From: an uncultured Clostridia bacterium
Lineage (GTDB): Bacteria; Bacillota; Clostridia; TANB77; CAG-508
Assembly: GCA_944389475.1 (NCBI GenBank)
Contig: CALXMM010000002.1
Location: forward strand, 19,483 to 83,482
Direction of reading: 5' to 3'
Length of the DNA: 64,000 nucleotides
Below are positions 24,550 to 28,906 of the stretch, one piece after another (positions within the stretch are counted from its first letter, which is position 1; each line of letters begins with the position of its first letter). The notes beneath the pieces were generated by a model, which had not been told where the DNA came from, made no database searches, and saw only the letters and a list, made by a program, of their open reading frames with translations. Position numbers and translations under genes: made by a program.

Positions 24550-26439
24550 ATGAAAAATAAAATAAAATATATATCAGTATTAATTATTATTACAATCCTA
24601 GTAAACATTAGTAGTAATATATCTTTTGCAAAAGAAGATAAAACACAAGAAAATTCAAGATTTTCTATAAATATATCTAAAGATTTTGAAAAGTGGGATC
24701 AACTTCCAGAAGAAAATAAAGATAAAATAATTATGCCAAAGATTACGACATCAGTTTTATCTGGAAAAGGAAGTTCTATTTTTGCTGGGGCAAAGAATTT
24801 ATTTGCAAAGGCTAGTATTCCAAGTAAGTATAGTTTAACTGAAGATATAGATATGCAGGTAAAGGATCAAGCTCAAACAGGTTTATGTTGGGCAATGACT
24901 GCCACAAGTGTATTAGAATCTAATTTAGCTTTATCAAGTGAAAATAAAGATACACGAAGATTTTCAGCAAGACATATTGATTATGCTACATCAAGAACAT
25001 TTTTAGATGGTATTAATTCTAAAGGCTATAATAGAGAAGTTGGTGATGGTGCAGAAACAGCTTTAGCATTAAGATATTTTACCAATGGAACAGGAGCAGT
25101 ATTAGAAGAAGATATGCCATTTGAAAATAATAGTGATAAATTAAAACTAGAATCAATTCAAAAAGACCCAAAAGTTAGAGTGACAGATTATGAAGAGTTT
25201 CCAAGTATTAATAAAGAAATTGACTCTAATGGGAATATTACATATAGTGACTCAAATGGAGAGGAATTTTCTAAAGAGGAAGTTTCTACAATTAGAAACG
25301 AAATAAAAAATCATATTATAAACTATGGTGCAATAGGAACTGGAATATATTCAAGTGGAGAAGAATATTTTAATAATCCTTCAGATGTGCTAAAGTCTAC
25401 TTCGTATTATTGTAATGATTCCAATTTATCTGATCATGAGATAGCAATTGTTGGATGGGATGACAATTATTCTGTCGAAAATTTTAATCCAGAGCATAGA
25501 CCTAAAAATCCTGGAGCATATTATTGCTTAGTTTCATGGGGAGAAAATAGTTTTGATAAAGGATTTTTATATGTTTCATATGATGATGTTAATATTGAAA
25601 AAAATTTATCTGGAATAATTGGAGCAGAAAATATAACAGATGACCAAACACTTTATCAAAATGATTTTTATGGCGAATCAATGGCTATCATAGCTGAGGA
25701 AGGTCCTGATATAGGATTGGCCAATGTGTTTACGAAAAATAGCACGAAAGATGAATATGTAGAAGAAGTACAAGTATCTGCAACAGGAGATGGTACAGCA
25801 GAAGTATATATTAATCCAACTGATTCTAGTTTGGATGAATCTAAGTTACAAAAAGTAGAAGTAGATTCTTCAGAATTGGATGGGACTTTTAATACATTTA
25901 GGTTAAAGTATCCAATAAAGATAACAGGAGATAAATTTGCAGTAGTAGTAAAAATAAAACTTAATGGACAAATACAATTTGGAGTGGAGTGTAATATAGT
26001 GGACAGTGGAATTTCGACAGAACCAACTATATTTGATTTTGTAAGTGCAAATCCAGGAGAGAGTTTTATTTCAATTGATGGATTAAAATCTTGGATGGAT
26101 TTTAGAGATTTTAATTTAACTGGAGATTCATTTAAAGAATCTAATTTATGCGTGAAGGCTATAACTACAACAAATGTACCTGATGAATATCCATATCCAG
26201 ATACAAACACAAATACAAATTCTAATAATAGCAATACTGATAATCCATCTGTAAATGGTGGAGCTGGAACAACAAACAATTCTAATTTTAGTTATAATGG
26301 AAAGATAGACAAACCTTTATCTGGTTTAAGACTACCAAATACTGGTGCTGAAATCTTTTTCGCTTGTGTATTACCTATAGTATTTATAATCTCTATTATT
26401 TCTTTTATAAATTATAGAAGATTTAAAGATGTTAAGTAG
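24550..26439 (+). CDS. Cell-wall-anchored (LPXTG) papain-like C1-family cysteine peptidase
   Basis: It has a signal peptide, the catalytic-Cys motif QAQTGLCWAMTA, and an N/T-rich linker. The C-terminus is LPNTG followed by a hydrophobic stretch and RRFKDVK. Confidence 0.75.
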   Translation: MKNKIKYISVLIIITILVNISSNISFAKEDKTQENSRFSINISKDFEKWDQLPEENKDKIIMPKITTSVLSGKGSSIFAGAKNLFAKASIPSKYSLTEDIDMQVKDQAQTGLCWAMTATSVLESNLALSSENKDTRRFSARHIDYATSRTFLDGINSKGYNREVGDGAETALALRYFTNGTGAVLEEDMPFENNSDKLKLESIQKDPKVRVTDYEEFPSINKEIDSNGNITYSDSNGEEFSKEEVSTIRNEIKNHIINYGAIGTGIYSSGEEYFNNPSDVLKSTSYYCNDSNLSDHEIAIVGWDDNYSVENFNPEHRPKNPGAYYCLVSWGENSFDKGFLYVSYDDVNIEKNLSGIIGAENITDDQTLYQNDFYGESMAIIAEEGPDIGLANVFTKNSTKDEYVEEVQVSATGDGTAEVYINPTDSSLDESKLQKVEVDSSELDGTFNTFRLKYPIKITGDKFAVVVKIKLNGQIQFGVECNIVDSGISTEPTIFDFVSANPGESFISIDGLKSWMDFRDFNLTGDSFKESNLCVKAITTTNVPDEYPYPDTNTNTNSNNSNTDNPSVNGGAGTTNNSNFSYNGKIDKPLSGLRLPNTGAEIFFACVLPIVFIISIISFINYRRFKDVK

Positions 26440-26473
26440 AAATATGAATAGATATAATATTGGAGGATTCAAA

Positions 26474-28906
26474 ATGAAGAATGTAATTAAAATTGTATCA
26501 ATATTAATTATTGCTACTATAATTTTAAATATAACTAGCATTATAACGCTTGCAAAAGATACTGAAAATGGACAAGCAACTCTTTCGGTAAATATATCTA
26601 AAGATTTTAAGAAGTGGACTGAGCTTTCAGATGAAGAAAGAAAAAATTCAATTACGCCAGCAGTTTCAACTTCAACTTTATCAGAAGTAGAAAAAAAGGA
26701 TGCAAACTCTATTTGGGGTAATGTGAAAAATTTCTTTGCAAGAGCATCTATTCCAAGTAAATATAGCTTGAAAGATTATATAAATATTCCTGTAAAAAAT
26801 CAGGGAATAACAGGTGAATGTTGGGCATTTTCTATGACAAGCGTTTTAGAGTCTTATTTAGCAAAGTCAGGACAAATGACTGTTATTCCAAGGTATTCTG
26901 CAAGACATATGGATTATGCAACAGCTAAAACATTTTTAGATGGAACAAACCCAATAGCTTATAATAGAGAACTTGGGGATGGCGGAAATTTTGGAGTAGC
27001 TTTTGGTTACCTTACAAATGGTACGGGAGCTGTATTAGAAAAAGACATGCCTTTTGAAAATAATGAGAATAAAATAAATTTGTCAGAAATTCAAAAACAA
27101 CCACAAATGAGAGTAACTGATTATCAATTATTTCCAAATATAAATAAAACATTTGATTCTAGTGGAAATGTTACATATACAGATGATATGGGTGAAGAAT
27201 ATACAAAAGATGAAGTAAATCAAATTAGAAATGAAATTAAACAATTTATTATGAAATATGGTGGAATAACAGTAAATACTTATTCAAGAGGCCTTCAATA
27301 TTATAGCAATCCATCACAATATGATAAATCAGTTGCATATTTTTGCAATGATAATGATTATGCCATTGACCATGAAATAACAATAGTGGGTTGGGATGAT
27401 AATTATTCTGTTGATAATTTCAATCCTAATAATAAACCAAAAAATCCGGGAGCATATCTTTGTTTAAATTCATGGGGAACAGACTACTTTGATGATGGAT
27501 ACTTATATATTTCATATGATGATGTTAATATAGAAAAATCTTTAGCAGGAATAATGGGAGCAGAAGAGATAACTGAAGACCAAAATATTTACCAAAACGA
27601 TTTTTATGGGGAAACTATGTATATAAATCTTAATCCAGGTGGAGATGTAGGCTTAGCTAATGTCTTTACAAAAGAAGGCAACGCAGATGAATATATAGAA
27701 GAAGTACAAGTTGCCGCAAAGGGAAGCGATGCTAAAGCTGAAGTGTACATAAATCCAACTGATGATAGCTTAGATTCCTCAAAATTACAAAAGGTGGATA
27801 TCGAATCGAACGATTTAGATGCAGAAGTAAATACCTTAAAATTAAAAAAACCAATTAAAATAACGGGTAATAAATTTACAGTAGTTGTAAAATTAATATA
27901 TAGTGAATCAATGCATTTTGGAATTGAAGCGAATTTATTAGATTGTGGAGCTTCGTATTCACCAACAATGTTTGATTGTGTAACTGCAAGTCCAGGAGAA
28001 AGTTATATATCAACTGATAGTTTGCAATCATGGCACGATTTTACTACTTTGAGAGTGGGTTCTTATACATTTGAACAAGCGAACTTATGTGTAAAAGCTA
28101 TAACAACAACTGATGCACCAGAGGAAGATCCTAATACGAACACTGGTAATGAAAACACAAACACGGGCAATGAAAATACTAATACCAATACTGGAAACGA
28201 GAATACAAACACAAATACCGGAAACGAGAACACAAACACAAATACCGGAAATGAAAATACAAACACAAATACCGGAAATGAAAATACAAATACAAATACC
28301 GGAAATGAAAATACAAACACGAATACTGGAAATGAAAATACAAATACAAATACCGGAAATGAAAATACAAATACAAATACCGGAAACGAGAACACAAACA
28401 CAAATACCGGAAATGAAAACACAAATACAAATACCGGAAATGAAAACACAAATACAAATACCGGAAATGAAAACACAAATACGAATACCGGAAATGAAAA
28501 CACAAATACGAATACCGGAAATGAGAACACAAATACGAATACCGGAAATGAAAACACAAATACAAATACCGGAAATGAGAACACAAATACGAATACCGGA
28601 AATGAGAACACAAATACAAACAACGGAAACGATAATACAAATACAAACATGGGCAACGAAAATACTAATACAAATAATTCAAATAACTCAAATAATAATT
28701 ATAATAGTGGTATAGGAACAACAAACAATAATGACCTAGGAAACAATTCAGTTTATTATTATAATGGAACAGTAGACAAGTCTTTGTCAGATACTTTATT
28801 ACCAAAAACAGGTACTGAACTTGTTGTTAGTTATATATTGCCAATAGGCTTTATAATATTAATTATTTCATATGTTAACTATAGAAGATTTAGGGATGTA
28901 AAATAA
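26474..28906 (+). CDS. Cell-wall-anchored (LPXTG) papain-like C1-family cysteine peptidase, a paralog with a long repetitive stalk
   Basis: It has a signal peptide, the motif NQGITGECWAFSMTS, about 20 repeats of TGNENTNTN, and LPKTG followed by a TM segment and RRFRDVK. Confidence 0.75.
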   Translation: MKNVIKIVSILIIATIILNITSIITLAKDTENGQATLSVNISKDFKKWTELSDEERKNSITPAVSTSTLSEVEKKDANSIWGNVKNFFARASIPSKYSLKDYINIPVKNQGITGECWAFSMTSVLESYLAKSGQMTVIPRYSARHMDYATAKTFLDGTNPIAYNRELGDGGNFGVAFGYLTNGTGAVLEKDMPFENNENKINLSEIQKQPQMRVTDYQLFPNINKTFDSSGNVTYTDDMGEEYTKDEVNQIRNEIKQFIMKYGGITVNTYSRGLQYYSNPSQYDKSVAYFCNDNDYAIDHEITIVGWDDNYSVDNFNPNNKPKNPGAYLCLNSWGTDYFDDGYLYISYDDVNIEKSLAGIMGAEEITEDQNIYQNDFYGETMYINLNPGGDVGLANVFTKEGNADEYIEEVQVAAKGSDAKAEVYINPTDDSLDSSKLQKVDIESNDLDAEVNTLKLKKPIKITGNKFTVVVKLIYSESMHFGIEANLLDCGASYSPTMFDCVTASPGESYISTDSLQSWHDFTTLRVGSYTFEQANLCVKAITTTDAPEEDPNTNTGNENTNTGNENTNTNTGNENTNTNTGNENTNTNTGNENTNTNTGNENTNTNTGNENTNTNTGNENTNTNTGNENTNTNTGNENTNTNTGNENTNTNTGNENTNTNTGNENTNTNTGNENTNTNTGNENTNTNTGNENTNTNTGNENTNTNTGNENTNTNNGNDNTNTNMGNENTNTNNSNNSNNNYNSGIGTTNNNDLGNNSVYYYNGTVDKSLSDTLLPKTGTELVVSYILPIGFIILIISYVNYRRFRDVK
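28132..28680 (+). repeat. In-frame 27-bp tandem repeat array (about 20 units, consensus accggaaatgaaaacacaaatacaaat) encoding (TGNENTNTN)n
   Basis: The array is seen directly. The units are nearly identical at the DNA level and become degenerate at both ends. Confidence 0.9.

Follow-up and report, generated by a model that had tools for sequence, protein, structure and literature searches.

In what follows, the window is a 64,000-nt stretch of contig CALXMM010000002.1 (GenBank assembly GCA_944389475.1) from an uncultured Clostridia bacterium, and positions are counted from its first nucleotide. Two adjacent genes of the window, here termed gene 1 and gene 2, encode papain-family (C1A) proteases of the type represented by Cwp84 of Clostridioides difficile, with an LPXTG-type sorting signal in place of the CWB2 wall-binding repeats of that protein. 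We consider it likely that both genes encode secreted endopeptidases of this type that are tethered to the cell wall.

Cwp84, the S-layer maturation protease of C. difficile, is the only studied member of this protease type. In a group of uncultured gut Clostridia a Cwp84-like core is a conserved single-copy gene at one genomic position, carrying a sortase signal instead of CWB2, and across metagenomes the core is fitted with an LPXTG signal or with a dockerin about equally often. This variety makes ‘Cwp84-like’ the description of a general surface-protease chassis of Clostridia, not of a C. difficile speciality. The type itself is common in gut metagenomes and the pair is a fairly ordinary member of its family; what is new is the placement of orthologs in one slot in nine species, the divergence of gene 1, a strain with a hybrid deletion allele, and the variation of the body and stalk of gene 2. 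With a fixed Asn-to-Val paralog, a hybrid deletion allele, a divergent body and a variable stalk, the locus is a reasonable marker of surface-protein diversification in a clade not yet amenable to cultivation.

Architecture and fold

The listing of open reading frames (ORFs) of the window has both genes on the same strand, where an earlier note, made from the sequence alone, had placed them (Table 1). Each begins with an ATG (at 24550 and 26474) preceded by a ribosome-binding site that can be read from the sequence, AGGGGGAG for gene 1 and GGAGGA for gene 2. The Pfam model Peptidase_C1 (PF00112, cut-off 20.7 bits) matches gene 1 with an E-value of 1.1e-11 (45.7 bits) and gene 2 with 3.4e-15 (57.2 bits). 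Directly after the C1A domain both proteins carry the Lectin_like domain (PF18560), the matches covering profile positions 1–156 of 156 in each; this domain was missed by the full-length Pfam scan and recovered by scanning the C-terminal domains in isolation. A Ger(x)C match from NCBIfam on gene 1, at 23 bits against a cut-off of 163, was dismissed as chance.

Signal peptides were recognized by inspection (MKNKIK...SFA/KE in gene 1, MKNVIK...TLA/KD in gene 2, the slash marking the end of the signal), each with a hydrophobic core of ∼18 residues; the AlphaFold2 model of gene 2 has a helix at residues 2–20 and then a disordered linker. Behind the lectin-like domain comes an Asn/Thr-rich stalk, ∼50 aa long in gene 1 and ∼229 aa in gene 2. 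Minus-strand and other-frame ORFs within the gene 2 stalk repeat (28063–28715) are artefacts of its 27-bp periodicity and were set aside. The stalk leads to LPNTG or LPKTG, 30 residues before the C-terminus, then to ∼20 hydrophobic residues and a tail of the form NYRRF(K/R)DVK. A Pfam scan for CWB2 wall-binding repeats (PF04122) gave no match in either protein; judged by their domains, both proteins thus lie outside the Cwp family, though they share their core with Cwp84.

The earlier note had described a tandem pair of paralogous papain-family homologs, ∼55–60% identical where they can be aligned, each with a signal peptide, a beta-rich C-terminal domain and an LPXTG-type sorting signal. All of this holds. 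BLASTP aligns the two products with 321/554 identities (58%) and with 55% identity across the last 65 aa, the Pfam match and the tripartite C-terminus are found in both, and the beta-rich domain is identified as Lectin_like.

Among solved structures the best match by sequence is Cwp84 (4ci7, 4d59; E ∼5e-23), in an alignment that spans the protease and runs into the lectin-like domain. An AlphaFold2 model of gene 2 residues 1–555, built on a 36-sequence alignment, has a predicted local distance difference test score (pLDDT) of 88.9 and a predicted template-modelling score (pTM) of 0.88; only gene 2 was modelled, and the fold of gene 1 rests on its 58% identity to gene 2. The top Foldseek matches of the model are three Cwp84 chains (4ci7, 4d59), with E-values from 2e-31 to 8e-29, target-normalised template-modelling (TM) scores of 0.81–0.84 and up to 550 aligned columns. 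For chain 4ci7_B the values are 2.1e-31, 0.83 (by target length) and 541 columns. Cathepsins follow at E ∼1e-12 and cover the C1 half only.

Cwp84 has a cleavable propeptide (residues 33–91, cut at Lys91-Ser92), a cathepsin-L-like domain and a lectin-like domain that was new when its structure was solved (PMC4089489). Gln110 and Cys116 have the same numbers in gene 2 as in Cwp84, and gene 2 reads ...FARA-SIPSKYSL around residues 88–99; this numbering and context make it likely, as far as sequence can tell, that gene 2 has a propeptide of the same length as that of Cwp84 (∼60 aa). The gene 2 model aligns with the propeptide-bearing structure 4ci7, and the propeptide is the fastest-evolving part of the protein, with a ratio of nonsynonymous to synonymous substitution rates (dN/dS) of 0.85 between the paralogs.

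Table 1. Features of the protease gene pair, in window coordinates
Feature	Coordinates	Strand	Description
Promoter-like site 5′ of gene 1	24495..24524	+	ATGTCA, 18-nt spacer, TATGAT with TG extension (extended -10); consensus match only
Gene 1	24550..26439	+	629 aa; divergent paralog, stalk ∼50 aa
Gene 1 layout			Signal peptide aa 1–27, putative propeptide to ∼aa 88, then C1 and lectin-like domains, stalk and LPNTG signal
Crossover block, gene 1 side	24668..24687	+	20-nt TAAATATATCTAAAGATTTT, identical in both paralogs; the switch in L023 falls inside
Gene 1 Peptidase_C1 domain	24856..25599	+	aa 103–350; Pfam match
Gene 1 active-site residues	24868–24870, 24886–24888, 25435–25437, 25531–25533	+	Gln107, Cys113, His296, Val328, in that order; from alignment; Trp330 also kept
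Gene 1 Lectin_like (PF18560)	25651..26166	+	E 1.2e-16, 61.8 bits against cut-off 27; precomputed annotation agrees
Gene 1 sorting signal	26332..26436	+	LPNTG (26332–26346), hydrophobic segment, basic tail RRFKDVK
Gene 2	26474..28906	+	810 aa; canonical paralog, long repetitive stalk
Crossover block, gene 2 side	26589..26608	+	Same 20-nt block TAAATATATCTAAAGATTTT; deleted interval 1921 bp
Gene 2 Peptidase_C1 domain	26786..27529	+	aa 105–352; Pfam match
Gene 2 active-site residues	26801–26803, 26819–26821, 27371–27373, 27467–27469	+	Gln110, Cys116, His300, Asn332, in that order, then Trp334; from alignment
Gene 2 Lectin_like (PF18560)	27587..28105	+	E 7.7e-18, 65.6 bits against cut-off 27; AlphaFold2 model aligns to Cwp84 lectin-like domain
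Gene 2 stalk repeat	28153..28676	+	27-bp × 19.4 tandem array; unit NTNTGNENT, encodes (N-T-N-T-G-N-E-N-T)n
Gene 2 sorting signal	28799..28903	+	LPKTG (28799–28813), hydrophobic segment, basic tail RRFRDVK
Terminator-like hairpin 3′ of gene 2	28920..28958	+	10-bp stem (GGGCAATAAG / CTTATTGCCT), 9-nt loop, -13.0 kcal/mol, then T-rich tail ATTTATATTT

Genomic slot and duplication

With 35 bp and no hairpin between the genes, a promoter-like site upstream of gene 1 and a terminator-like hairpin after gene 2, the pair resembles one transcription unit, and its two genes are probably co-transcribed. The hairpin was missed by a pattern scan whose loop limit was 8 nt and was found by folding the sequence.

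A genome scan found a single ortholog of the pair in each of nine related species known from metagenome-assembled genomes (MAGs), labelled uncultured Clostridium, Clostridia and, in one case, Bacilli. These orthologs are 61–65% identical to gene 2 and 50–56% to gene 1. In 9/9 species the ortholog stands directly after a dCMP deaminase gene, and a split transketolase gene and ftsEX follow in the seven loci whose contig reaches that far. The neighbouring proteins are 80–98% identical to those of the window, the protease only 61–65%, marking it by these comparisons as a fast-evolving gene in a conserved slot. Gene 2 corresponds to the single-copy gene of the related species, and gene 1 appears as the faster-diverged extra copy. 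Among 34 other homologs, 100 columns reach at least 90% conservation; gene 1 differs from the conserved residue in 12 of these and gene 2 in 2. In a neighbour-joining tree gene 1 sits on a long branch at the base of the nine-species clade, a position that an old duplication and a faster evolution of gene 1 fit alike. Between the paralogs dN/dS is 0.31–0.33 in both the protease and the lectin-like domain, which indicates that both genes are under purifying selection.

The window has a G+C content of ∼28%, and an SspH spore protein is encoded downstream on contigs of the same species. Gut MAGs, ‘Clostridium sp. CAG:354’ among them, are the source of the nearest orthologs; the GTDB genus CAG-354 belongs to order TANB77, family CAG-508 (bioRxiv 10.1101/2021.05.11.441322), and the TANB77/CAG-508 clade has been reported to be without cultured members (PMC11680825). 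To judge by the identity of the neighbouring genes, the species of the window probably falls in this clade or close to it.

Tandem duplication was also seen elsewhere. In a distant lineage (∼31–33% identity) there is a separate tandem pair at L018:6704-13252, both members ending in LPKAG. In the window itself, two tandem paralogs at 32452–34798, each with a PcsB-like coiled coil and an M23 peptidase, directly follow ftsE and ftsX and are another duplicated cell-envelope hydrolase of this neighbourhood.

Variation between strains

An exact look-up of the gene 1 product found it on record (P0162), which led to contigs of the same species; the same look-up with the gene 2 product gave no record. 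Contigs L020–L022 carry the same tandem pair. A fourth, L023, is 99.3–100% identical to the window on both sides (in 150-bp steps) and has a single gene where the window has two, between those for the deaminase and the transketolase. This is a hybrid (P0003, 809 aa, at L023:3845-6274) with the 5′ end of gene 1 and the body of gene 2: it tracks gene 1 through the promoter region, the signal peptide and the first 46 codons, with 1–2 base differences, and is gene 2-like from there on. The region upstream of gene 1, 99–100% identical in L023, would drive the hybrid gene there. Since the switch falls inside a 20-nt block common to the paralogs (Table 1), we ascribe the hybrid to unequal crossing-over that deleted 1921 bp, and gene 1 is therefore dispensable in that strain.

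The gene 2 part of the hybrid is itself divergent. Across window positions ∼26900–28100, the mature protease and lectin-like part, gene 2 is only 85–91% identical to L023 at the nucleotide level, with dS 0.25–0.33 and dN/dS ∼0.3. Gene conversion from gene 1 was considered as the source of this allele and is not supported: beyond the 5′ crossover there are only three short runs of 3–5 gene-1-like sites, and such runs are compatible with shared ancestral states. The allele could be an import by recombination or an old polymorphism. The stalk also varies, with 14–25 repeat units in 12 gene 2-type alleles from different metagenomes. This spread may be real slippage or an artefact of short-read assembly, the 524-bp array being longer than a short read.

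Occurrence in metagenomes

A profile search of 1.84 billion representative proteins (clusters at 50% identity) matched 13,219 proteins at E ≤ 0.001, of which 5,053 reach E ≤ 1e-30. The best 150 representatives mostly match through both domains. An LPXTG-type signal ([LIM]P.[TA][GS], mostly LPNTG, IPQTG, LPYTG or LPKTG) stands at the end of 52 of them and a dockerin-like module at the end of at least 49, the others being fragments or carrying other domains; the closest 120 matches split between LPXTG and dockerin in the same way. Sortase-type tethering of this protease core is thus, to go by its C-terminal motifs, common in uncultured Clostridia. Literature searches found no experimental report of an LPXTG-anchored papain-family protease in Clostridia.

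The earlier note had called surface-tethered C1 proteases uncommon in clostridia and had set the pair apart from CWB2-attached proteases. The first statement is contradicted, at the level of sequence, by the 52/150 LPXTG-type and at least 49/150 dockerin-bearing proteins among the best representatives. The contrast fails as well: the protease and lectin-like core is the same as in CWB2-attached Cwp84 by sequence, by PF18560 and by fold.

Proposed mechanism

From the architecture, homology, residues and population variation of the pair we infer export, zymogen activation, sortase anchoring and proteolysis, which would proceed as follows. Guided by its Sec signal peptide, each product would leave the cytoplasm as a zymogen, with the ∼60-aa propeptide blocking the cleft between the cathepsin-L-like C1A domain and a lectin-like domain packed tightly against it. 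The propeptide would be removed near residue 90, at ...FA(K/R)A / SIPSKYSL, in the numbering of the Lys91-Ser92 cleavage of Cwp84. A sortase would then cut LP(N/K)TG and link the protein to peptidoglycan, so that the protease would be held on an Asn/Thr-rich stalk of ∼50 aa (gene 1) or ∼175–275 aa (gene 2). Gene 2 would be the canonical enzyme (Gln110, Cys116, His300, Asn332) and gene 1 an extra copy that at least one strain does without.

Several points weigh against this scheme. The source organism is uncultured. A six-frame scan with TLxTC-type regular expressions, strict then loose, picked up no sortase-type ORF across the 438 kb made up of the 64-kb window and 23 related loci, a result that speaks only to a locus-linked sortase. 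The NCBIfam model LPXTG_anchor (TIGR01167) scores gene 2 at 14.8 bits, below its cut-off of 15.9, and gave no match to gene 1. Gene 1 is moreover without the canonical active-site Asn and has further changes near its Cys (G to A after Gln, E to L before Cys, F to M, S to T), which leaves a lowered or lost gene 1 activity possible. The bearing of these points is taken up below, for the active site and for the anchor in turn.

Active-site residues

Residues were compared in an alignment of both genes, 28 homologs, papain and a Cwp84 fragment taken from the match to its structure. The Cys motifs are GLCWAMTA in gene 1 and GECWAFSM in gene 2. All 36 sequences of a larger set (34 homologs and both genes) have the Gln, the Cys and the His. 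At the column of papain Asn175, gene 2 has Asn332 (LNSWG), gene 1 has Val328 (LVSWG), and the aligned homologs have Asn in 28/28. In 146 further 50%-identity representatives Gln is found in 146, Cys in 144, His in 145 and Asn in 138; the eight without Asn show Q, S, D, G, T or Y instead, and in just one of these Cys and His are missing too. The earlier note's assignment of a catalytic Cys with downstream His and Asn to both genes therefore stands in full for gene 2, which has all four residues, and for gene 1 extends to Gln, Cys and His, with Val328 in place of the Asn.

The active site of Cwp84 consists of Gln110, Cys116 and His262, with Asn287, at one time proposed for it, lying outside (PMC4089489). 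Asn324 (KPK-N-PG) was accordingly rejected as a counterpart of Cwp84 ‘Asn287’, its column being moreover variable among homologs (N/S/K/T/E/R). At the papain Asn175 column Cwp84 has Ser in our alignment, and Cwp84 cleaves SlpA (PMC4089489, PMC5842191).

These residues bear on a different view of gene 1: as a pseudo-enzyme that binds its target through the cleft or the lectin-like domain, as an adhesin would, or as a redundant copy on its way to loss, leaving gene 2 as the only catalytic member. Such a view draws on the replacement of an Asn kept in 34/34 aligned homologs and 138/146 representatives, on the excess of deviating conserved columns over gene 2, on the loss of the gene 1 body from strain L023 without visible compensation, and on the occurrence of a likely pseudo-protease within the family (P0248, with Cys changed to Ser and His to Thr). 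We think it unlikely, because gene 1 retains Gln107, Cys113, His296 and Trp330, the dN/dS between it and gene 2, ∼0.3 in each domain, equals that among gene 2 alleles, and all 14 full-length gene 1 alleles have both Val328 and an intact frame. Papain, for its part, does not strictly require Asn175; the N175A change, reportedly made by Vernet et al. in 1995, is said to cause a loss of ∼150-fold. With its Gln, Cys and His in place, and given that Cwp84 is active despite lacking Asn at that column, gene 1 probably continues to work as a Cys-His dyad enzyme like Cwp84, with altered efficiency or specificity.

As an observation on the wider family, P0248 is a protein of 2430 aa that has Ser in the Cys column, Thr in the His column and Tyr in the Asn column, and is likely a true pseudo-protease of the Cwp84-like family.

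Proposed wall anchoring

Sortase anchoring is proposed from the sorting signals. These are present in all orthologs, and LPKTG is invariant across orthologs that are only 61–66% identical overall. The alternative is that the proteins are not linked by sortase, the hydrophobic C-terminal segment and basic tail serving as a membrane anchor, or the proteins being shed. We regard this as improbable. It could account for the missing sortase in the 438 kb scanned, for the LPXTG_anchor score under the cut-off, and for the variant motifs of distant homologs (IPQTG, LPNAG, LPKAG). Pentapeptide, hydrophobic segment and basic tail nevertheless form a classical tripartite signal, LPKTG is invariant among the orthologs, and the retention of such a signal in 52/150 family representatives is not easy to explain without selection by a sortase. 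Housekeeping sortases, moreover, are often unlinked to their substrates.

Possible biological role

If the two products are wall-tethered endopeptidases, our preferred guess, by analogy with Cwp84 and Cwp13, is that they would process or turn over surface proteins of their own cell. A close second is a main job directed outward, namely the breakdown of proteins from host or diet, be they mucus proteins, immunoglobulins, matrix proteins or food peptides, in the service of nutrition or colonisation; we treat it as a tentative possibility. In its favour, Cwp84 degrades gelatine, fibronectin, laminin and vitronectin in vitro (PMC5842191), the relatives belong to gut clades with reduced genomes, and the long, length-variable stalk of gene 2 would hold the enzyme away from the wall. 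The mature domains, too, at 85–91% nucleotide identity within flanks of 99–100%, show a pattern typical of exposed proteins under host or phage pressure. A single-copy gene in a conserved housekeeping slot in 9 species, on the other hand, fits a housekeeping role in the cell envelope equally well, and SlpA processing is the one role in the family that has been proven genetically (PMC4089489, PMC5842191).

A more elaborate division of labour between the paralogs can be imagined, to which we give only a small chance. Gene 1, on its short stalk and with Val in place of the Asn, would work in or near the wall as a Cwp13-like auxiliary that activates the zymogen of gene 2 or removes surface proteins that were misassembled. 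Gene 2, on its long stalk, would face outward, its body and stalk diversified by recombination and repeat slippage so as to escape host antibodies or phage. If true, an uncultured gut clade linked to immunotherapy response (TANB77/CAG-508 relatives) would have a surface antigen that differs from strain to strain.

Other features of the window

Three tRNA-Gly(tcc) genes lie at 21492–23762, and the identity of the first to the second and third is only 63%. These genes flank a 601-aa ORF of low GC on the minus strand (21573–23378) with a weakly nucleotidyltransferase-like N-terminus and ∼480 unannotated residues, on which PADLOC gave no match. The similarity of L023 to the window ends at the tRNA-Gly gene at 23582, beyond which L023 has a 626-aa serine recombinase; the region looks like an integration hotspot. 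Adjoining it on the minus strand (20659–21432) is a gene for a protein with a NERD nuclease-related domain and a topoisomerase-type zinc ribbon, which gave a weak PADLOC match to PglW (E 1e-7, over 70 residues only).

Three tandem 51-bp units, 91–96% identical, stand between divergent ORFs at 5808–5962; each contains the inverted repeat AAAATCAAAAGATTTTGA, and the units may serve as an array of operators. At 53065–53408 there is an RNase P RNA of class A, a class that fits Clostridia rather than Bacilli. Two tandem 47-nt units at 53466–53559 overlap the end of a minus-strand ORF (53541–54410). Two 791-aa minus-strand ORFs of the window were considered as a related pair and rejected, being mutually unrelated.

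Comparison with known systems

The closest known system is Cwp84 (MEROPS C1A; PDB 4CI7, 4D59, 4D5A), whose order of parts both genes appear to share: signal peptide, propeptide, C1A domain, PF18560 domain and wall module. With gene 1 it also has in common the lack of Asn at the papain Asn175 column. The two systems differ in sequence, Cwp84 and the gene 2 model being only ∼23–25% identical over the fold alignment, and in attachment, which in Cwp84 is non-covalent through three CWB2 repeats and here depends on an Asn/Thr stalk with an LPXTG signal. In an alignment read by eye, the S2-pocket residues Thr317, Asp318 and Asp320 of Cwp84 face non-identical residues in gene 2, so the specificity of gene 2 probably differs from that of Cwp84. 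Cwp84 acts on SlpA, and no SlpA-like substrate is known for the organism of the window.

Cwp13 is a second, less essential C1A paralog in the cell that has Cwp84; it cuts other sites and can also take off the propeptide of Cwp84 (PMC5842191). The way in which Cwp13 and Cwp84 share their work is a functional precedent for an auxiliary-plus-canonical pair like gene 1 and gene 2. Cwp13 would have arisen by an independent duplication and is anchored through CWB2. Its gene is not known to lie in tandem with cwp84.

The dockerin-bearing C1A and lectin-like proteases of gut and rumen Clostridia (PF00112, PF18560 and PF00404) have the same core at 39–44% identity, tethered at the cell surface through the kind of module that their lineage employs. 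They are uncharacterised; their dockerins imply attachment to a cohesin scaffold rather than to peptidoglycan, and they are without the repeat stalk. For the mode of display proposed here, a secreted zymogen, a spacer, an LPXTG anchor and extracellular cleavage, there are parallels in the C5a peptidase ScpA of streptococci and PrtP of lactococci, LPXTG-anchored proteases of the subtilisin type (serine peptidase family S8) whose catalytic class and fold are unrelated to those of gene 1 and gene 2.

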